Part shown: in pieces, positions 3,099-36,662 of the stretch
Layout: each line of letters opens with the position of its first letter
Position numbering within the stretch: position 1 is the stretch's first letter
Virus record (IMG/VR): IMGVR_UViG_2563366824_000008
Origin: a virus
Lineage: Duplodnaviria > Heunggongvirae > Uroviricota > Caudoviricetes
Direction: 5' to 3' (one strand)
DNA length: 41,432 nucleotides
Program-made: the position numbers and the translations under genes
The notes under the pieces: model-generated
What the model saw: only the letters and a program-made list of their open reading frames with translations
The model's database searches: none
Told to the model about the DNA's origin: nothing

Positions 3099-3453
3099 TT
3101 ATATGCATAACGACCTCCTGAATAGTAAAGCATTATGCATAATAAACCATTTATGGTTTTTTGTTACCCCTACATTGTCATTTCTATATCTTTCACACCA
3201 GAAAAAGATCTCACTATCACGACTTGTTAAGCCTATTGCCATGCCAGAACATTTCAATCCACAGGCATTCTAACTGGATGTGTTCACTCGCAATAAATTA
3301 CTTACAACAGACTATCGAACAGTAAATAAATATTCATGCAAGAATGAGAAAAGCGCCTGCACAGGCATATCACAAATAACATTATTTTTTACTACATCAT
3401 AAAAAATCGCGTTGTAATTTTGTATGTATTTCGTTATTGGTAATTATTTTATA

Positions 3454-3494
3454 ATCCAATAAAACAGGGAGGATTACTAATAATCTCCTCCCTG
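3454..3494 (-). terminator. rho-independent terminator after the tailspike gene
   Basis: On the minus strand: CAGGGAGGA ... TCCTCCCTG stem followed by TTTTATTGG; 21 nt downstream of the tailspike stop. Confidence 0.5.
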
Positions 3495-3514
3495 CATCCA
3501 TATAATAAAATATA

Positions 3515-6415
3515 TTAATTAGTTATTTTTCCTTCCAATTCTTCAATCCTCTTTATAATATTTTTCTGACGTATACCTAATGCAGCAATCATTAGATACT
3601 GTAATTCATCATTTCTGAATGCATAGCGTTCTCCTGCTTCATGCGTAATAGTTATAGCCTCACGAACAAGGTTACCTTCATCATCATAAACAGCAGGATC
3701 TGTATCTGCATATGCATCCCATCTGTCATAGCAGATCGCTCCGTATTTAAATGGATCAAGTCCATTCTCTCTGAATATTTCCATTGCCCGTTGCACCGTA
3801 AGTCCGGCATGAAGTCTGGCATCAGCTCCCTTATTTTTTACACTATCAAGCCATTGATAAAAACCAATTTCATCAACAAGAGCTAACCCAACAGCCTGCT
3901 CTTTATCGGAAAGAGTTCTGACTTCCGTTTTCTCTGTTGCATCAGATGTATTTATAGTTGCAGTCCCTGCGTAGACCTGAGAAAAGCGGTTAACGGACCT
4001 TCCAAGTGATACCTGGTTATCAGTTGTTGGCCTTAATGTCGTCGTCGCCCATGTCGATGTAGTATCTTTAGTCGCAGAAAATACTGTTACATTCCCCTGC
4101 TTAAGTCTGACGACACCTCCATCTGTAGAGGCAAGTATCAACTCACCAGCCGCAGATGGACAATCAGCAGCATGGATATCAATATAAGCACCACCTGCAG
4201 TATTCCCATCTTTAGAACGGAACTGCATACCTCGAAAGTTTGAGTCGAATACTGCTTTCGTACTTACCCATGAATTATTGTCATGTCCGTAATCTGTATC
4301 AAACAGGTTAAGGTTATTTCCATAATTCAACTCGAGGGATTTGGTATACTCTCCAATGGCTTCGTCAAATATCGCAATAGTAAATGAACCGTGCTCACGG
4401 TTAAAGGCGATATCAGTTCCAGCATAATATTGATGCGCGGTTCCGGTATACGGATCGGATTCTGCGCCATGCACTGGATGGTTGCCAAGAATATCAGACA
4501 GGTTTGCTACTCCAAACAGATGCTTATTTCTGCGAGTATAATCGCCTGATTTATATGTTGCACCTGAATCCCATTCACCATTTGTCGCTGCAAGCGATGT
4601 TTTTAACCAATAAGACCTGTTTGTCGGAAGATTTCCCTTGTTATCACCAGTAACAGTACTTACCCAATTTTTGCCACGATGACTTACAACATCCCCTGCG
4701 CTTTTCCATACATCCATAGCACCACAGACAAGTTCATCACCTCTTATTGCCAGCCCTTCAGGCTCAAAGCTAACCGGAACTCCGATTTTAGAGTCAGAAC
4801 CATTTAACTGAGTCTCTGTATAAAGTGATGCGGCAAGTGATACAGGAAACGAACGTATTAGCGTACCACCCATATCATAAATCTGGACTGTCCTTACGCA
4901 TCTTGCAGGAACGCCACCCCAAATTGTGTAAATATATCTGCTATCTGATGTAATACCCTGAAGTGTTGCACCATACTGACCTTTACCACGAACAAGTGGA
5001 ACAGGACCATTAATCGGTCTAACTTTCATTGGGCTAGAAGAAGATTCCACTTCTTTGCGATCATATACATATAAAAATCGGCCAGTCCCAGTGTTTGATG
5101 TCGCAATTAATATGACATATCGCCCATCATTAGATACACAAATACTTGCCCGCTGCGCAAGGTTAATCAGATTATTATCACCAGGCTCACCAAATACTCG
5201 GTAATGAGTTATATCTTCAGCAGATGTTGATGCCCCTTTCCATTTTGTCTTTGAATACCCCTTCCCTCCTAGAGAGGAACCAGTCTCAGCAATTGTTGTT
5301 GTAAACAGATATAGTTCACCGTTCTCTATTGTGGCAGAAAGATCTGACCCGTGACCAAGAGGCAATGGCTCTGTAAATGTCACAACAGAAAGAGTTGAAC
5401 CATCGCTTGTATAGTGCCACTCACTGATCCTTGTGAGGGTGTCCGTTCCCCAGTTAGAACCTCCAACCTGTTGAGTGATAAAAACCTTCTCAATACCTTC
5501 ATGCCTTACACAAGCTATTCCCTGCAATGCGTTTTGTGCATTCGCATATATAGTTGGCGCATTGATATCATCACCAAAATTCAGGGTCGCAAGTTTTCTT
5601 TGTCCAATGGAGAAACTTTGCATCGGCGGATTAACGGAAATGCGAACACCATTACTGATTAGAACACCATCACCGGAGAAGCGTGAAATATCTATTTTCG
5701 ATGCATCAACTATATATTCCCCTGCAGGAACATGAACAATTTTAGAGTTTAACTGTGCATTTATAAAAGCATTTGTATCATCATTAATTAAGTCTGCTTT
5801 TGCCCCAAAATCCTTTACGCTATAAACGTCACGCATCTTATCCTGGAACGTTCGGTATACTGCTCCAGAACCATACTGAATAAACCATCCGAAACCACCG
5901 ACAACACCAGCAATTGCAGCATCCACATACTTACGCATTGAGCGATTATTTACAGCATCCTGCTCAAATGATGGATCTGCAAGGTTAGAAATTTTGTTTT
6001 GCTTTGCATCGTAATATTTTGCAAGCAAAGATGGTTTCATCAATGCACGTCTGAACCACCCAAAACATTGCTGGATCAGCATCGTCAGGTAGTCAAAGGC
6101 ATCTTCATGCACTTCGGGGAAAAATTTTCCCTGATTGCGAAGGTCTGTCTCCTGCACTACATCAAGCACACGATCTATCGTAATTCGCCATCCAGCAGCA
6201 AGCGGCGACGGAAGAACCACAGAACCGCCACTATAAGTGCCCGCCCCAGTTACCGTATAACCGGTATCCAGAACCAATTCTGTTACGTTCCCGTTCAGGT
6301 CAGACACCTGAACAACCAGGTCTGATTTTTTGAAAATACGGAAGGTATACGGAAACGATGTCGTAACGCCGTTACCGGTGTATTCGTTGTGGTCAACTTC
6401 GGTTGAGACCGTCAT
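3515..6415 (-). CDS. tailspike/tail fiber with beta-helix depolymerase-like body and C-terminal intramolecular chaperone domain
   Basis: 966 aa; N-terminal virion-attachment region; VKDFGAKADLINDDTNAF pectate-lyase-like beta-helix start; C-terminal segment (TLSDKEQAVGLALVDEIGFYQW...) resembles the self-cleaving S74 chaperone of tailspikes. Confidence 0.8.
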   Translation of the reverse strand: MTVSTEVDHNEYTGNGVTTSFPYTFRIFKKSDLVVQVSDLNGNVTELVLDTGYTVTGAGTYSGGSVVLPSPLAAGWRITIDRVLDVVQETDLRNQGKFFPEVHEDAFDYLTMLIQQCFGWFRRALMKPSLLAKYYDAKQNKISNLADPSFEQDAVNNRSMRKYVDAAIAGVVGGFGWFIQYGSGAVYRTFQDKMRDVYSVKDFGAKADLINDDTNAFINAQLNSKIVHVPAGEYIVDASKIDISRFSGDGVLISNGVRISVNPPMQSFSIGQRKLATLNFGDDINAPTIYANAQNALQGIACVRHEGIEKVFITQQVGGSNWGTDTLTRISEWHYTSDGSTLSVVTFTEPLPLGHGSDLSATIENGELYLFTTTIAETGSSLGGKGYSKTKWKGASTSAEDITHYRVFGEPGDNNLINLAQRASICVSNDGRYVILIATSNTGTGRFLYVYDRKEVESSSSPMKVRPINGPVPLVRGKGQYGATLQGITSDSRYIYTIWGGVPARCVRTVQIYDMGGTLIRSFPVSLAASLYTETQLNGSDSKIGVPVSFEPEGLAIRGDELVCGAMDVWKSAGDVVSHRGKNWVSTVTGDNKGNLPTNRSYWLKTSLAATNGEWDSGATYKSGDYTRRNKHLFGVANLSDILGNHPVHGAESDPYTGTAHQYYAGTDIAFNREHGSFTIAIFDEAIGEYTKSLELNYGNNLNLFDTDYGHDNNSWVSTKAVFDSNFRGMQFRSKDGNTAGGAYIDIHAADCPSAAGELILASTDGGVVRLKQGNVTVFSATKDTTSTWATTTLRPTTDNQVSLGRSVNRFSQVYAGTATINTSDATEKTEVRTLSDKEQAVGLALVDEIGFYQWLDSVKNKGADARLHAGLTVQRAMEIFRENGLDPFKYGAICYDRWDAYADTDPAVYDDEGNLVREAITITHEAGERYAFRNDELQYLMIAALGIRQKNIIKRIEELEGKITN

Positions 6416-6519
6416 GTTAAATCTCCAGATAGTCGCAGCACCCGTTGCGCCGCATATCTGGTTATTCTATTACCTGAAAAACCACATATGGATAGAAAGA
6501 CTGTGAATACGAATAGATA

Positions 6520-6534
6520 TTACCTTTCGGGTAA
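6520..6534. promoter_or_regulatory. candidate repressor operator TTACCTTTCGGGTAA
   Basis: Perfect copy of the recurrent TTACCT-N4-GGTAA inverted repeat, 77 nt upstream of the 6611 start. Confidence 0.5.
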
Positions 6535-6571
6535 TTTGCAAAACGTGCTGGATAGCAAACAAATTATTTGC

Positions 6572-6591
6572 TACTGTATAAATATACAGTT
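6572..6591. promoter_or_regulatory. LexA (SOS) box overlapping a -10-like element
   Basis: TACTGTATAAATATACAGTT matches the CTGT-N8-ACAG LexA consensus with an AT-rich spacer; overlaps TGTATAAAT; 20 nt upstream of the ATG at 6611. Confidence 0.7.
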
Positions 6592-6610
6592 ATTGCATGG
6601 AGAAGATAAG

Positions 6611-6868
6611 ATGCAGCAGTATCACTATCCACTGGAAGACGGATTTACCGAAAGGATTCACACGCCGGGAGGCGTCAGGTCACTGGTGGAGGGATCGCAT
6701 TTGATGAAATTACTCCGGGATCTCGATAAGGATGGATTTAATGTCGATGGCCCACTTGCCGAACTGACTGCACTGATTAACTACGTCACCAGCTCACAGA
6801 TGTCTATGCGGGATCTGCAAACACATCTCGACTATTGTGCCGAACAATTACGAAAACAAACCAGATAA
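6611..6868 (+). CDS. small antirepressor-like protein, paralogous to the C-terminal domain of the adjacent Ant
   Basis: Start taken at the internal ATG 6611 (RBS GGAGAAG) of ORF 6488..6868; 85-aa product aligns by eye with the last ~70 aa of the 7184..7879 protein (shared positions include LM-LL, DG, AELT, RD-QTH-Y). Confidence 0.6.
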   Translation: MQQYHYPLEDGFTERIHTPGGVRSLVEGSHLMKLLRDLDKDGFNVDGPLAELTALINYVTSSQMSMRDLQTHLDYCAEQLRKQTR

Positions 6869-6899
6869 GATTTGAAATTACCAAGAGGAGTGCTTATAT

Positions 6900-6914
6900 T
6901 TACCTTTGCGGTAA
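6900..6914. promoter_or_regulatory. candidate repressor operator TTACCTTTGCGGTAA inside a 12-bp inverted repeat
   Basis: Perfect motif copy lying in the loop between CAAGAGGAGTGC (6883..6894) and GCACTCCTCTTG (6924..6935). Confidence 0.45.
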
Positions 6915-7006
6915 ATTTACATCGCACTCCTCTTGTGCCATAGTAATCGGGCACTGGCAAAATCCAGTGCCGGGATTGGCGTCCCGGATTACTAAAAGGC
7001 GTATTC

Positions 7007-7026
7007 ACCGCGCAAGCGGTTTTTTT
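7007..7026 (+). terminator. rho-independent terminator (GNRA-loop hairpin plus T-run)
   Basis: ACCGC-GCAA-GCGGT followed by TTTTTT; about 140 nt after the 6611..6868 stop. Confidence 0.5.
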
Positions 7027-7183
7027 ATGCGTATAGCACGGCCACATTCGTATTATGGTGGGCTGTGTGGGGGCACCGAAAGGTGCGCCGGGTCCTTTTA
7101 GCCGGTTACGCCAACCCTGCACAGTTCACCACCAACCGATTGGCGTCGGTAGTGGTGATTAACCAGACTAAAAGGTAACCACT

Positions 7184-7879
7184 ATGACAGCTACAAAAAG
7201 CACGTCCATTTTTTCTTTCGAATCCCAAGCCGATATACGAGTAATCGTCATTAATGGTGAGCCATGGTTTATCGCTTCAGATGTTTGTCGGGCTATAGGC
7301 ATAGCAAATCATCGAGATGCTGTTAGAAAACTTGATGATGATGAGAAGGGCGTCGCTTCAACCGACACCCCTGGCGGTGAGCAAGAATCGATCATCATCT
7401 CCGAGTCAGGCCTCTACACACTGATCCTCCGCTGCCGCGACGCAGTGACACCAGGCACTATCCCCTACCGCTTTCGTAAATGGGTTACAGGTGAGGTTCT
7501 TCCTCAGATCCGCCGCACCGGAAGTTACATTAAAAACTCGCTCCCGCAGGAAGAACGCATAAAGATAGTTGCCGACCAGGTAGCCAACGCCACAGCATCA
7601 GCAGTGATGCAGGCAATGAAGATAGAGAACAAAACCTACAGTGCCCCACTGAAGCCCGGCTACCGCAGCCTGATTCACTCGCCGTCGGGTGTTCTCGGCC
7701 TGACGGAGAACTCACTGCTGATGAATCTGCTGAACCAGTTGCAGGACGACGGGCACGACGTATCGGGCGCGGCGGCGGAGCTGACCACCATGTTCTGCTA
7801 CATCGTCGGTGTGAGCAAATGCCTGCGTGATATCCAGACCCACGCGGAGTACATCAACGACAAAGCAGGGTTCTTCTGA
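7184..7879 (+). CDS. ant: antirepressor with BRO-N (KilA-N-like) N-terminal domain
   Basis: 231 aa; N-terminal region (VIVINGEPWFIASDVCRAIG...) matches the BRO-N/antirepressor signature as remembered; RBS AAAAGGTAA; C-terminal domain paralogous to the 6611 product. Confidence 0.75.
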   Translation: MTATKSTSIFSFESQADIRVIVINGEPWFIASDVCRAIGIANHRDAVRKLDDDEKGVASTDTPGGEQESIIISESGLYTLILRCRDAVTPGTIPYRFRKWVTGEVLPQIRRTGSYIKNSLPQEERIKIVADQVANATASAVMQAMKIENKTYSAPLKPGYRSLIHSPSGVLGLTENSLLMNLLNQLQDDGHDVSGAAAELTTMFCYIVGVSKCLRDIQTHAEYINDKAGFF

Positions 7880-7949
7880 CGGCGGCGGCACAGGGATGTG
7901 CCTTTAAATAATTCTGTACGATTGCAGACTGTGGGTGAATAGCGTACTA

Positions 7950-7964
7950 TTACCTCAAGGGTAA
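7950..7964. promoter_or_regulatory. candidate repressor operator TTACCTCAAGGGTAA
   Basis: Perfect motif copy 60 nt upstream of the 8025 start. Confidence 0.45.
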
Positions 7965-8024: not shown

Positions 8025-8204
8025 ATGCGAAACGAAAAATTGCAGATGCGTAGAGCGCAAGCTGCCGCAAGACGTTCTTTCAATGGAAGCGTAGAGTACG
8101 TAAAAGTTACTATGACAAAAGATCACGCAAGTCGCGTATCCCGCGCTTTCTTTGATTCTCGTAACAATAAGGAAAATTATGAGTTCGTCTGCGTCGCAGA
8201 ATGA
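8025..8204 (+). CDS. small basic protein (candidate antitoxin), not in the ORF track
   Basis: 59-aa ORF translated by hand; RBS GAGGT 6 nt upstream of the ATG; overlaps the next gene by 26 nt in another frame. Confidence 0.4.
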   Translation: MRNEKLQMRRAQAAARRSFNGSVEYVKVTMTKDHASRVSRAFFDSRNNKENYEFVCVAE

Positions 8205-8724
8205 TAAAAATCAAATTGTCAGATATAAGGGTCGAGTATTGCATACGCAAAATTTCTCGGCCCTTTGTGCATCTGATCTTGAGCTGAAGAAAGTATCTGA
8301 TGCCTTTGCCCAGTATTGGAAAACGGGATACCATCCATCTCTTGGTAAAGATGCTGCATTTGCTCGTCCGACAGAAATGCTTAAACTAAATGTCAGGCAT
8401 ACTCATGTCGATAACCAAGACTATATTCCAGAAGATAGTGATAAAAAACACACTGGTAAAAAATCATCTTGGGATGCATGGAAAAATATAGCGTCTGTAC
8501 AAGTAAAATGCATACCAACAAGTGATTGCTTTTTAGTTTATTCGGTAAATCACAATCGTGATGCGCTGGTTATGTTTTTTGTTGACGCAGATGCTCACAA
8601 CATAACTGAGCAAGAAGAGTTTAAAGAGGAAGCAATCACTATCAGTTATCAATTCTTTGAGAAAACAAAAACAGAACCAATGCCTTTAGAAGAAGATCTT
8701 TTTTCTGATAAATGGAAGGAATAG
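8179..8724 (+). CDS. candidate toxin, possibly YafO-like
   Basis: Start taken at ATG 8179 (RBS AAGGAAAA) within ORF 8152..8724; 181 aa; segments DAF-QYWKTG..P.LGKDAAF, HTHVD and CFLVYS resemble my recollection of the YafO ribosome-dependent mRNA interferase family; not verified. Confidence 0.4.
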   Translation: MSSSASQNDKNQIVRYKGRVLHTQNFSALCASDLELKKVSDAFAQYWKTGYHPSLGKDAAFARPTEMLKLNVRHTHVDNQDYIPEDSDKKHTGKKSSWDAWKNIASVQVKCIPTSDCFLVYSVNHNRDALVMFFVDADAHNITEQEEFKEEAITISYQFFEKTKTEPMPLEEDLFSDKWKE

Positions 8725-21476: not shown

Positions 21477-21527
21477 CTTCTTTCTCCATTAGTGGGCCTG
21501 TTACGACCCACAGGTTAATAACAGGCG

Positions 21528-25510: not shown

Positions 25511-25525
25511 TTACCTTTCAGGTAA
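25511..25525. promoter_or_regulatory. candidate repressor operator TTACCTTTCAGGTAA with adjacent TTGACA
   Basis: Perfect motif copy; TTGACA at 25489..25494 immediately upstream; 320 nt before the tRNA. Confidence 0.45.
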
Positions 25526-25847: not shown

Positions 25848-25924
25848 GTGGCATTAGCTCAGTTGGACAGAGCAACCGCCTTCTAAGCGGTTGGTCGCAG
25901 GTTCGAATCCTGCATGCCACGCCA
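25848..25924 (+). tRNA. tRNA-Arg, anticodon UCU (argU-like)
   Basis: 77-nt cloverleaf folded by hand: acceptor GTGGCAT/ATGCCAC, D arm GCTC/GAGC, anticodon stem ACCGC/GCGGT with loop CTTCTAA, T arm GCAGG-TTCGAAT-CCTGC, discriminator G, encoded CCA. Confidence 0.9.
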
Positions 25925-31985: not shown

Positions 31986-32062
31986 TTACCTCTAAGGTAA
32001 TTAAAAACCACATAAGACACGAAATCAATAGAGTTTAGAATATTTTGTTACCTTATAGGTAA
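31986..32062. promoter_or_regulatory. two candidate repressor operators between P-like and downstream genes
   Basis: TTACCTCTAAGGTAA (31986..32000) and TTACCTTATAGGTAA (32048..32062). Confidence 0.5.
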
Positions 32063-32099: not shown

Positions 32100-32900
32100 T
32101 TACTTGATAAATCCTGCCGCCTTTCCCCGCCTGTATTCCTCCATCAGCCACTGCGCCGGTGTTATTCCCCCGAGGGTGGCGGCGTTAGGCATGCACCCGA
32201 AACTTCGCCCTGGTGGATGGTAAACGTCTCTCCCTGTGTCCGGAGGTGTACTCATGGGCTCTGGCTTTGCCTGTATGCTGATCACCGGATCGGGTATCTG
32301 CTGTCCGGAAGCCACCTTTTTCGCCCAATCATCGAGCAACCTGCGCGCGTGTTTCTCAACCTCAATCTCGCTAAGCTGGCGCTGATACATTGCACGGCGG
32401 GTATCACATACGACCCAGTACATAACCGGATGCCGCCACGGGAATCTTTCGGGACCACCAGGATATAAACTTTTTTCCTTGCTGTACCGGTGAAACTCCG
32501 CCATCACATCGTCAATGGTGACGCCAAGAACCATCTTGCTGTCTTTGCACCACTTGATGAATTGCCCTGGCGACGGCCAGAACGGAGATTCACTGGCGCG
32601 GGCGTGGCGCATACCAGCAGAAACCTGTTCACGGGTTCGGATCCCCCCTTCGGCAAACGCAGCAATCCACTGCTGTTTTGCAGCGACTTCCTGCTCTGGC
32701 GTCTTCAGGTTGGTTACCACTGCCGCCGGAAACAGTTGTTTCAGCTGTTTGAAAAGGGCATCAACAAGCCTCTCTGCTGACATGTTCACCACATTGTCAT
32801 TGTTGACGTACTGATGCTCATAACCTGACATGCGAGAAAGGGCTTCTCCGTCACGGTTTTGTATCGCGGTAAAAACGTTGTTCACAAGAAATCCTCCCAT
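32100..32900 (-). CDS. replication protein P-like (DnaB helicase loader)
   Basis: 266 aa; segment QQWIAAFAEGGIRTREQVSAGMRHAR...PFWPSPGQFIKWC aligns with lambda P as I recall it. Confidence 0.7.
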   Translation of the reverse strand: MGGFLVNNVFTAIQNRDGEALSRMSGYEHQYVNNDNVVNMSAERLVDALFKQLKQLFPAAVVTNLKTPEQEVAAKQQWIAAFAEGGIRTREQVSAGMRHARASESPFWPSPGQFIKWCKDSKMVLGVTIDDVMAEFHRYSKEKSLYPGGPERFPWRHPVMYWVVCDTRRAMYQRQLSEIEVEKHARRLLDDWAKKVASGQQIPDPVISIQAKPEPMSTPPDTGRDVYHPPGRSFGCMPNAATLGGITPAQWLMEEYRRGKAAGFIK

Positions 32901-34330: not shown

Positions 34331-34393
34331 TCACCTATAAGGTAACAAAAATCAAGAATAGTTACCCATGAGGTGCATTTACCTGTTGGGTAA
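34331..34393. promoter_or_regulatory. immunity-region operator cluster (three sites) with divergent promoters
   Basis: TCACCTATAAGGTAA (34331..34345), TTACCCATGAGGTGC (34362..34376), TTACCTGTTGGGTAA (34379..34393) in the 154-bp gap between divergent regulator genes. Confidence 0.6.
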
Positions 34394-34448: not shown

Positions 34449-35033
34449 ATGAAAAGTATCCAGGACGTCCGCAGGCAAAATCTCAACGACTTGATCGACC
34501 GTGAATTCAATGGTGTTCAGACGCGGATGGCAGAAAAACTTGGAACTCAGGCAAATCTGGTAAACCGCTGGGCTCTTGGCAAGAAGGTTATCGGCGACCA
34601 GGTTGCGCGAAAAATTGAAGCTGCCGCCAATAAACCCCGTAACTGGCTTGATATCGATCGCTCGCTTTCTCAGGAAGGTTTTCAGCCTGTCGGCCCAAGC
34701 GACATTGGTCAGCTGGCGGCTCACAACCTGGAACGCTGGATGAGCGAAAGCCGCGACCTTTCAACACAGGGAAAACTTCACCGCGCATCCGGCGTCGCCC
34801 AGGTGACAATCAGCCGCCTGTTAAACAATGAGGTCAGCGTTTCCATTTCCACCCTGGAGAATGTTGCATCCGCATTCGGGCGTCACGGCTATGAATTACT
34901 GATTCACCCGCACGACCCTGCGACTATCAACTATGACCGCTCGCGCTACGCATTGTTACCCGAAACAGAGAAGGCAAAGATCGAAAGTTACATTGAATTT
35001 GTCATCAGCCAGAACGAAAAAAACAAACAATAA
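34449..35033 (+). CDS. prophage repressor candidate with two HTH domains and no autocleavage domain
   Basis: 194 aa; two XRE-like HTH segments (QTRMAEKLGTQANLVNRW and HRASGVAQVTISRLLNN); no LexA-like Ala-Gly / Ser-Lys cleavage module seen; followed by its own terminator. Confidence 0.6.
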   Translation: MKSIQDVRRQNLNDLIDREFNGVQTRMAEKLGTQANLVNRWALGKKVIGDQVARKIEAAANKPRNWLDIDRSLSQEGFQPVGPSDIGQLAAHNLERWMSESRDLSTQGKLHRASGVAQVTISRLLNNEVSVSISTLENVASAFGRHGYELLIHPHDPATINYDRSRYALLPETEKAKIESYIEFVISQNEKNKQ

Positions 35034-35090: not shown

Positions 35091-35167
35091 TTACCTTATG
35101 GGTAATTTTTTTAACTCATATCTATTGACATCAAACCAGATACGCATAATCATTACCTCAACGGTAA
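35091..35167 (+). promoter_or_regulatory. rightward early promoter flanked by two operators (oL/pL analogue)
   Basis: TTACCTTATGGGTAA (35091..35105), TTGACA (35125..35130), CATAAT (35145..35150), TTACCTCAACGGTAA (35153..35167). Confidence 0.55.
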
Positions 35168-35844: not shown

Positions 35845-36662
35845 ATACTGGCATCTATTTCGACATCAGCAATGAGGACTACCACGCCGGTGACGGCGTG
35901 AGTAAGTCGCAACTGGACATGGTTGCCAAGAATCCGGCGCTTCTTAAATGGGTTCAGGCAGCACCAGAAGACGAAGAGAAAAAGTCTGCACTAGATATGG
36001 GAACTGCATTGCACTGTCTGCTTCTGGAACCTGGAGAATTCGACAAACGCTTCATTGTTTCACCAAAGTTCGATCGTCGGACGAAACAAGGTAAAGCTGA
36101 CGAAGAAGCATTTCTTCGTGATGTAGCGGATATGGGGATTGCGGTACTTGATGCCGAGCAGTGGCGGAAACTGGAGCTGATGCGTGATAGCGCAATGGCT
36201 CACCCGGCGGCACGCTGGATGCTGGAAGCACCTGGTTACTGCGAAGCATCAATGTACTGGAACGATGAAGAGACTGGTGAGTTGTGCCGCATTCGTCCAG
36301 ACAAATGGCTGAACGAGCACAACGTGATCGTCGACGTGAAAAAGGTTGCAGATATGGACCGTTTTGCACGCCACATCGAGGAATTCCGCTACCACGTGCA
36401 GGACGCAATGTACCGCGAAGGCGCAATGAAGGTTACTGGTCAGCCGCATGGTTTTTTCTTTCTTGCCGTGAGCGAAAGCATTGATTGTGGTCGGTATCCG
36501 GTACGCGTGTTCGAGCTGGATGCGCCGGATGTCGATGCCGGGCACGCTCTGTTCCGCCGGGATCTGAATACCTATCACGAATGCCGCATCAACGATGAGT
36601 GGGGCGGAGTGGAAATTATTAAACGCCCTGACTGGGCACGTAAACAGGATATGTACGTATGA
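35841..36662 (+). CDS. recombination exonuclease, PD-(D/E)XK-type
   Basis: 273 aa; D..(D/E)xK-like motif around VIVDVKK; immediately upstream of and coupled to the annealing-protein gene. Confidence 0.55.
   Translation: MNTGIYFDISNEDYHAGDGVSKSQLDMVAKNPALLKWVQAAPEDEEKKSALDMGTALHCLLLEPGEFDKRFIVSPKFDRRTKQGKADEEAFLRDVADMGIAVLDAEQWRKLELMRDSAMAHPAARWMLEAPGYCEASMYWNDEETGELCRIRPDKWLNEHNVIVDVKKVADMDRFARHIEEFRYHVQDAMYREGAMKVTGQPHGFFFLAVSESIDCGRYPVRVFELDAPDVDAGHALFRRDLNTYHECRINDEWGGVEIIKRPDWARKQDMYV

Follow-up and report, generated by a model that had tools for sequence, protein, structure and literature searches.

A probable SPC32H-type LexA–Ant–Rep induction switch in a phiV10-like prophage of Escherichia coli, with a second antirepressor module downstream of ant

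The closest described counterpart of the locus analysed here is the induction switch of the Salmonella phage SPC32H. Kim and Ryu reportedly found in 2013 that SPC32H and SPC32N are two nucleotides apart genome-wide, and that a change in the SPC32N LexA site overlapping the ant promoter leads to constitutive Ant and the lytic cycle. In the same account, the repressor Rep is said to stay uncleaved during the SOS response while ant is negatively controlled by LexA, and the antirepressor Ant is said to be structurally distinct from the antirepressors of siphoviruses and myoviruses. At the molecular level, the Rep tetramer that binds DNA contacts two palindromic sites, and it is broken up by an Ant tetramer that binds two Rep dimers (PMC9638917). 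The tetramerisation domain of Rep is described in a secondary paper as being of the DNA-looping type.

Related logic is found in other phages. For Salmonella prophages, a review that refers to the 2013 study describes how LexA self-cleavage allows an antirepressor to be made and the repressor to be inhibited (PMC7380047), and LexA-repressed antirepressors elsewhere include Tum of coliphage 186, GfoA and GfhA of Gifsy-1 and Gifsy-3, Tum of Fels-2 (PMC3121763) and AntC of N15. The locus studied here resembles Tum, GfoA, GfhA and AntC in that a small protein shut off by LexA would inactivate a non-cleavable repressor (logic as in PMC7380047). No relationship in sequence was detected: Ant matches PHROG families 450, 15539 and 1760 only and no Pfam family, and the likeness is one of function. 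The position of the antirepressor gene beside the tailspike gene of a podovirus also recalls the immI region of P22. In contrast to P22, control by LexA is proposed here, Ant has 85 residues rather than about 300, and no mnt or arc gene lies between the tailspike gene and ant in the list of open reading frames. The ant locus is not a P22-type immI. Furthermore, a P22 ant mutant stays SOS-inducible (PMC7380047), since the C2 repressor of P22 is cleavable.

We analysed a window of 41,432 nucleotides, meaning the whole stretch of viral DNA under study, and conclude that the phage very probably uses the LexA/Ant/Rep switch of the SPC32H type. For this phage, we infer LexA binding, SOS inducibility and the Ant–Rep interaction from homology and the literature. 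The finding is correct, but the mechanism has been published for the orthologous phage SPC32H and is not new: the locus is the E. coli counterpart of a known switch. The added value lies in the neighbouring module, in which a Bro-N antirepressor is controlled by a Rep operator and gated by IsrK/C4 antisense RNA. The coordinates of all features are collected in Table 1.

Table 1 Features of the ant locus, the rep region and the downstream antirepressor module (positions in the window; a dot marks features without a strand).
Feature	Position	Strand	Basis and details
Rep-type operator TTACCTTTCGGGTAA	6520..6534	.	Between the divergent tailspike and ant genes
Probable ant promoter	6549..6577	+	-35 TGGATA 6549-6554, 17-bp spacer, -10 TACTGT 6572-6577
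LexA (SOS) box TACTGTATAAATATACAGTT	6572..6591	.	18/20 consensus match; alignment to SPC32H and epsilon15 boxes; invariant arms
Shine-Dalgarno GGAGAAG of ant	6599..6605	+	Direct reading; invariant in alignment
ant, 85-aa antirepressor, SPC32H Ant orthologue	6611..6868	+	PDB 5D50_E; SPC32H identity; PHROG 450
Promoter TTGAAA-17-TATATT (6872-6900) and operator TTACCTTTGCGGTAA (6900-6914)	6872..6914	+	Promoter scan 10/12; operator over -10 and start
IsrK-like sRNA / c4-a1b1 element	6951..7026	+	a1 6976-6982; b1 6992-6999; intrinsic terminator 7007-7026
C4-type antisense RNA	7051..7136	+	Loops b' 7094-7101 and a' 7108-7114; Rfam C4 77.7 bits (gathering score 45)
C4 target sites	7140..7175	+	a2 7140-7146 TTGGCGT; b2 7168-7175 CTAAAAGG, over the Shine-Dalgarno of the 7184 ATG
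Second antirepressor, 231 aa	7184..7879	+	Bro-N residues 17-107; Ant-like C-terminal domain 150-226
Operator copy	34379..34393	.	Divergent intergenic region between rep and a cro-like gene
rep, 194-aa prophage repressor, SPC32H Rep orthologue	34449..35033	+	PDB 5D50_A and 5D4Z; tblastn; Pfam
Operator pair, 35091-35105 and 35153-35167	35091..35167	.	62 bp centre to centre, downstream of rep

The prophage and its Ant and Rep proteins

Judged from its sequence, the window is an E. coli prophage of the phiV10/epsilon15-like kind, genus Uetakevirus. The region is 95-98% identical to the E. coli podoviruses phiV10, vB_EcoP_ZX5, TL-2011b and O157 typing phages 9 and 10. For the Salmonella phages epsilon15, SPN1S and SPC32H, the Enterobacter phages Tyrion and BUCT554 and several Klebsiella phages, the identity is 67-80%. 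The stretch from 6440 to 7200 is present, over at least 80% of its length, in 391 of 5,426 complete E. coli genomes (about 7%), and the small gene is labelled "hypothetical protein" in every RefSeq E. coli genome listed. Another IMG/VR record, UViG_2563366985_000004, is as long as the window and carries ant at identical coordinates. Two Uetakevirus prophages, one of them assigned to the phiV10 species, have been reported to show 21- and 47-fold induction by a DNA-damaging microcin (bioRxiv 10.64898/2026.05.26.727859).

The original prediction had pointed to a small antirepressor-like gene directly downstream of the LexA box, and comparison with the crystallised SPC32H Ant identifies this gene more closely. 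Its product aligns over residues 2-84 with PDB 5D50_E, the 86-aa SPC32H chain named "Anti-repressor protein" (E = 1.4e-46), and 72 of 83 residues (87%) are identical to the annotated SPC32H ant product. Among PHROGs, it matches families 450 (E = 7e-48) and 15539, both of "unknown function", and the C-terminal part of family 1760, "anti-repressor"; no Pfam or NCBIfam model matched. A 126-aa open reading frame starting at 6488 was rejected as the gene in favour of the start at 6611, which is fixed by the homology to the 86-aa Ant and by the Shine-Dalgarno sequence.

The repressor is related to SPC32H Rep over its full length, with matches to the "Repressor" chain 5D50_A (E = 4e-42) and to the isolated C-terminal domain structure 5D4Z (E = 4e-20). 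The earlier description of this protein as a repressor with two helix-turn-helix domains and no autocleavage domain agrees with the Pfam search, in which residues 106-147 of Rep matched HTH_3, residues 21-61 gave a weak HTH-like match and no Peptidase_S24 domain was returned. No S24-like sequence was found in the whole window by tblastn with E. coli LexA and lambda cI queries, for which the best E value was 0.8. The putative recognition helix NLVNRW is common to both Rep proteins, which fits the identical operator half-sites of the two lineages.

Taken together, the phage shares with SPC32H (PDB 5D50, 5D4Z) the genus Uetakevirus, a closely similar Ant, a two-domain Rep lacking S24, a tailspike gene divergent to ant, a LexA box in the equivalent place of the alignment, and the operator upstream of it. 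The rep gene lies elsewhere, in an operator-flanked immunity region. The features of the SPC32H type, namely an Ant homologue, a Rep homologue without S24, a LexA box at the probable ant promoter and the synteny, were thus all found in the window. The phage differs from SPC32H in its E. coli host and in Rep, which is 41.8% identical to SPC32H Rep by tblastn. Given 42% identity for Rep against 87% for Ant, the binding of Ant to Rep in this lineage is assumed.

The LexA box and the ant promoter

The 20-nt LexA consensus is TACTGTATATATATACAGTA, and an E. coli-type SOS box has the form CTGT-N8-ACAG with an AT-rich centre. The box upstream of ant, TACTGTATAAATATACAGTT, deviates from the consensus at positions 10 and 20, which confirms the predicted match at 18 of 20 positions. 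Its CTGT and ACAG arms are perfect and all eight central positions are A or T. This is the sole site with three or fewer mismatches to the consensus in 41.4 kb, and 100 dinucleotide-preserving shuffles yielded none. The shorter pattern CTGT-N8-ACAG occurs three times in the window against 0.43 expected; the copies at 21498 and 26040 were not accepted as SOS boxes on account of their GC-rich centres. In the ant box, the centre, ATAAATAT, differs from that of SPC32H, ATGTTTAT, and is nearer to the consensus.

Alignment with related phages places the box column for column in register with those of phiV10, SPC32H, epsilon15, PAT1, Tyrion and BUCT554, and its distance to the ATG does not vary among them. 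The spacing from operator to box (37 bp) and from box to ATG (19 bp) is fixed in nine phages of E. coli, Salmonella and Enterobacter; two Klebsiella phages have a weaker box (ATGT...ACAG), displaced by one base. Between SPC32H (TACTGTATGTTTATACAGTG) and SPC32N (TACTGTATGTTTATAAAGTG), the intergenic region from tailspike to ant differs by a single base, a C to A change that turns the CAG of a box arm into AAG.

Conservation within the population was assessed in 80 loci from IMG/VR whose encoded Ant is at least 98% identical. An intact CTGT-N8-ACAG at 19-20 nt from the start codon was found in 75 of them. The seven sequence variants of the box differ solely at central positions 7-12 and never in CTGT or ACAG, and arms that stay invariant around a variable centre are the pattern expected of a functional LexA site. 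Among the other loci, one (L087) has unrelated sequence in place of the left half of the box, two are cut at a contig end and two lack the anchoring start-codon pattern. At one of the cut contig ends, the sequence is that of a sequencing adapter. Since the Ant search of viral contigs returned only relatives of at least 98% identity, these counts speak for conservation at the population level rather than across deeper diversity.

These observations bear directly on the possibility that the palindrome is an AT-rich inverted repeat that arose by chance, or an ordinary -10 element, in either case without LexA function, with induction proceeding by another route. We consider this very improbable: the shuffled sequences gave no comparable match, the arms are constant in the 75 loci around a varying centre, the box is kept across genera at a background identity of 67-78%, and the promoter difference between SPC32H and SPC32N falls within the box only.

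The relation of the LexA box to the ant promoter was then drawn from the alignment. The -10-like sequence TGTATAAAT that had been said to overlap the box is present at 6575-6583, and it contains one candidate -10, TATAAA (6577-6582). The other candidate, TACTGT, forms the left arm of the box itself. Relatives show no variation in the blocks CGTGCTGGATAGCAA and TACTGT, and the Klebsiella phages keep the geometry in the form TGGAAA-17-TATATG; the promoter listed in Table 1 is favoured on account of these invariant blocks and of the geometry retained in the diverged Klebsiella sequences. A further hexamer, TTGCAA (6536-6541), beside the operator, was rejected as a -35 because close relatives differ in it and no -10 follows at a distance of 16-18 bp. 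The hexamers of the favoured promoter are weak and the consensus promoter scan did not call it, and so we infer, rather than read directly, the exact overlap between box and promoter. Whichever -10 applies, a box whose 3' end lies 19 nt from the ATG must overlap the -10/start region.

We propose the following sequence of events. In the lysogen, host LexA bound to the box would cover the -10/start region of the ant promoter and keep the 85-aa Ant silent, while Rep, a two-domain helix-turn-helix repressor lacking self-cleavage, would occupy TTACC-N5-GGTAA operators across the genome. Upon DNA damage, activated RecA would promote the self-cleavage of LexA and ant would be transcribed. Ant would then bind the C-terminal domains of Rep and take it off its operators, so that lytic genes are expressed and lytic growth follows. 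SOS induction through a LexA-repressed antirepressor, rather than through repressor self-cleavage, had been suggested for this DNA before, and the orthology with SPC32H in Ant, Rep, gene order and box supports it.

Rep operators and the copy upstream of ant

The window contains 10 exact copies of TTACC-N5-GGTAA, against 0.04 expected from shuffles, and three of them flank rep. Two pairs of operators lie 62 bp apart, at 31986/32048 and 35091/35153, and epsilon15 has two pairs with the same spacing, at 32555/32617 and 35907/35969. This pairing is consistent with a single Rep tetramer touching two palindromes. The copy predicted just upstream of the LexA box is indeed one of the 10. Its epsilon15 counterpart is annotated 'repressor, lysogeny', and six further epsilon15 sites with the same motif are annotated as repressor-binding sites too. 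From the start of the operator to that of the LexA box the distance is exactly 52 bp in nine phages, and 53 bp in the Klebsiella phages.

The original prediction had suggested control of ant by both host and phage, in which Rep bound at 6520-6534 would also regulate the gene, and ant would answer to LexA and to Rep occupancy alike. Such regulation could take the form of repression by looping to the operator at 6900-6914, 380 bp away, or of activation from about -57. The first half of the suggestion stands, in that the operator is a genuine member of its family at a conserved position, with an offset to the box that is kept at 52 bp in E. coli, Salmonella and Enterobacter phages and at 53 bp in Klebsiella phages despite a diverged spacer. 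The Rep tetramer, which binds two palindromes and has a tetramerisation domain of the looping type, would be suited to such an arrangement, and operators lie on both sides of ant in the window.

The regulatory half of the suggestion fares less well. With its centre about 57 bp before the putative ant start, the operator lies beyond the core promoter and upstream of the likely -35. In 22 of 63 close relatives, phiV10 among them, its right half reads GGTGA and is thus imperfect, and SPC32H and epsilon15 lack the downstream partner operator. In SPC32N, moreover, the upstream operator is intact, yet Ant is reportedly constitutive, which would mean that Rep alone is insufficient to repress ant. We therefore regard true dual control as rather unlikely, although Rep may act on ant through looping or upstream contact.

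The site could equally serve the divergent late promoter of the tailspike gene, with ant left under LexA only. In epsilon15, predicted Rep operators precede several structural or late genes, including those for terminase, portal and tailspike. In the window, the interval from the operator to the tailspike ATG contains a conserved -10-like TAGAAT (6469-6464, minus strand), which together with a TCCATA at a 17-bp spacing gives a putative promoter TCCATA-17-TAGAAT at 6492-6464 on the minus strand. All relatives have a distance of about 105 bp between the operator and the start of the tailspike gene. Against this role, the operator centre is about 70 bp upstream of the putative tailspike start and thus outside that core promoter as well, and the promoter scan called no minus-strand promoter there. 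We hold a role at the tailspike promoter to be a reasonable possibility, short of a favoured explanation.

The downstream antirepressor module and its possible role

Directly downstream of ant lies a module that sets this phage apart from SPC32H and epsilon15, namely the extra Bro-N antirepressor under IsrK/C4 control. The module is present in phiV10, ZX5, Tyrion and Klebsiella phage OXA245phi3.2, and absent in SPC32H, epsilon15, PAT1 and BUCT554. Phages phiV10, Tyrion and OXA245phi3.2 keep the arrangement at 6872-6914, in which the operator overlaps a strong promoter. Another promoter-like site, TTTACA-17-CATAGT (6916-6944), is likewise conserved, and its predicted start coincides with the Rfam isrK match. 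A perfect 12-bp inverted repeat (6882-6893/6924-6935) gives a strong fold (z = -5.4); it was rejected as a conserved element, since phiV10 has only a degraded copy and Tyrion and OXA245phi3.2 have none.

The RNA elements of the module are well matched to one another. The segment 6951-7026 scored 77.4 bits with the Rfam isrK model (gathering score 50) and 45.1 bits with c4-a1b1. The a' and b' loops of the C4-type RNA are exactly complementary, over 7 and 8 nt, both to a1 and b1 upstream and to a2 and b2 downstream. Among the relatives, Tyrion and OXA245phi3.2 have b1, b' and b2 all altered in step, and Tyrion has a1, a' and a2 altered in step as well, which is genuine covariation.

The gene that these RNAs would control encodes a protein with a Pfam Bro-N match (E = 2e-21) and matches to PHROG families 130 and 1760, 'anti-repressor'. 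Its Ant-like C-terminal domain shares 43% of residues with the small Ant (E = 3e-16) and also matches 5D50_E in a separate comparison (E = 1.9e-13). In phiV10, the Bro-N gene ends early, at residue 181, so that most of the Ant-like domain is missing, and the module is thus dispensable in at least one viable phage.

Two described systems have the same layout, the immI region of P1 and P7 (c4-icd-ant) and isrK-orf45-anrP of Gifsy-1 (PMC4825925). The module shares with them a promoter overlapped by an operator, an a1/b1 (IsrK) element followed by a terminator, a C4 RNA with a' and b' loops, and a2/b2 targets over the Shine-Dalgarno sequence of a Bro-N antirepressor. It differs from both in lying directly downstream of the LexA-controlled ant with no intervening terminator, and in the C-terminal domain of the antirepressor under its control, which is a homologue of the SPC32H-type Ant. 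By these elements, the module is an RNA-gated antirepressor of the P1 immI and Gifsy-1 isrK-orf45-anrP type, placed in tandem with a predicted LexA-gated Ant.

The tandem arrangement suggests how the two antirepressors may act in turn, as a two-stage latch in which the small Ant is released by the SOS response and the Bro-N protein with its Ant-like domain follows. Inactivation of Rep would derepress the promoter at 6872-6900 and lead to a second Rep-binding protein, thereby creating positive feedback, and pairing between the C4 and IsrK RNAs would gate the translation of the gene at 7184-7879. A sequence scan found no terminator between ant and the IsrK-like a1/b1 element, and SOS-induced ant transcripts would consequently carry an IsrK-like 3' end. 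This end could act as a sponge for C4, or free the ribosome-binding site downstream, in the way described for the activation of anrP by IsrK in Gifsy-1. If the latch were real, it would turn a transient LexA signal into a self-reinforcing, Rep-independent commitment to lysis; we put it forward as speculative and consider it improbable as a whole.

In conclusion, the main value of this analysis is annotation, since it assigns a predicted function to an Ant family for which Pfam and NCBIfam hold no model and PHROGs give "unknown function" (phrog_450). With the mechanism established in the Salmonella relative SPC32H, no new question is opened. The analysis predicts that common E. coli prophages related to the O157 typing phage phiV10 are SOS-inducible through LexA and Ant, and not through repressor cleavage. 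The second, RNA-gated antirepressor, which shares the Ant domain and stands in tandem with ant, may provide a modest and testable extension of this switch.

An RNA-gated antirepressor module downstream of ant

Directly 3' of ant, which encodes the small antirepressor Ant, lies a module like those of P1 immI and Gifsy-1 isrK. It comprises a promoter overlapped by an operator of the prophage repressor Rep, an IsrK/a1b1 element, a C4 antisense RNA, a2/b2 targets covering the ribosome-binding site, and the gene of a Bro-N antirepressor. The C-terminal domain of this protein shares homology with the small Ant. In contrast to the phage studied here, the Salmonella relatives SPC32H and epsilon15 lack this module. 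In phiV10, the first 181 residues of the Bro-N antirepressor are 99% identical to the window protein; the sequence diverges thereafter and ends at 194 aa, so most of the Ant-like C-terminal domain, intact in the window protein, is missing.

The region of the C4 RNA is also overlapped by short ORFs. The one labelled "ash family protein" in the annotation of phage ZX5 stops 5 nt upstream of the Bro-N gene ATG; it may correspond to Gifsy-1 orf45, which has to be translated for anrP to be expressed.

A crystal structure exists for the Ant family. No Pfam or NCBIfam model covers this family; PHROGs lists it as phrog_450 with "unknown function", and its product is called "hypothetical protein" among the RefSeq E. 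coli genomes listed.

Coordinates of the features described (window unless another genome is named)
Feature	Coordinates	Detail
ant	6611-6868	
immI/isrK-like module	6872-7879	
Inverted repeat	6882-6893 / 6924-6935	CAAGAGGAGTGC / GCACTCCTCTTG
Operator inside the repeat	6900-6914	
Short ORFs over C4 RNA	7065-7178; 7055-7162	
Bro-N antirepressor, phiV10 (L001)	3282-3961	
Stretch with weak promoter-like sequence and operator	7922-7964	TTGCAG-17-TACTAT
Operator in this stretch	7950-7964	
ORF 3' of this operator	8152-8724	YafO-toxin Pfam match, E = 9e-6
Further operator copy	25511-25525	
tRNA gene	25848-25921	Rfam, 73 bits
Paired operators	31986-32062; 35091-35167	
Paired operators, epsilon15 (L006)	32555-32631; 35907-35983	
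Altered LexA box, L087 (IMGVR_UViG_2563366870_000004)	~1440-1500	…GGGGAAGACCCATAAACATACAGTT
Contig end, L088 (IMGVR_UViG_3300045988_013119)	1-73	AGATGTGTATAAGAGACAG

Operators and the inverted repeat

A perfect 12-bp inverted repeat encloses one operator downstream of ant. Its RNA fold reaches -28.6 kcal/mol (z = -5.4), and only RNA reading through from the ant promoter would adopt this fold. The repeat is degraded in phiV10 and missing from Tyrion and OXA245phi3.2.

The paired operators of both the window phage and epsilon15 are spaced exactly 62 bp from centre to centre, which suggests a single Rep tetramer spanning two palindromes approximately six helical turns apart.

Further operators were also observed. 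One overlaps the end of a weak promoter-like sequence, and the ORF 3' of it may be a toxin-like accessory gene controlled by Rep. Another lies near a tRNA gene within the phage.

LexA box variants among relatives

In the relative L087, the LexA box has unrelated sequence in place of its left half, as if the box had been split by insertion or rearrangement, and this phage may be a natural LexA-blind variant. The contig end of L088 adjoining the LexA box carries what we take to be the Nextera transposase adapter sequence; if this recognition is right, that end would be an assembly artefact. The Klebsiella Uetakevirus-like phages L010 and L011 keep the operator upstream of ant, and their LexA box has a left arm ATGT (TATGTATATATATACAGTAT) with a 1-bp shift; SOS control in these phages may be weaker or differently tuned.
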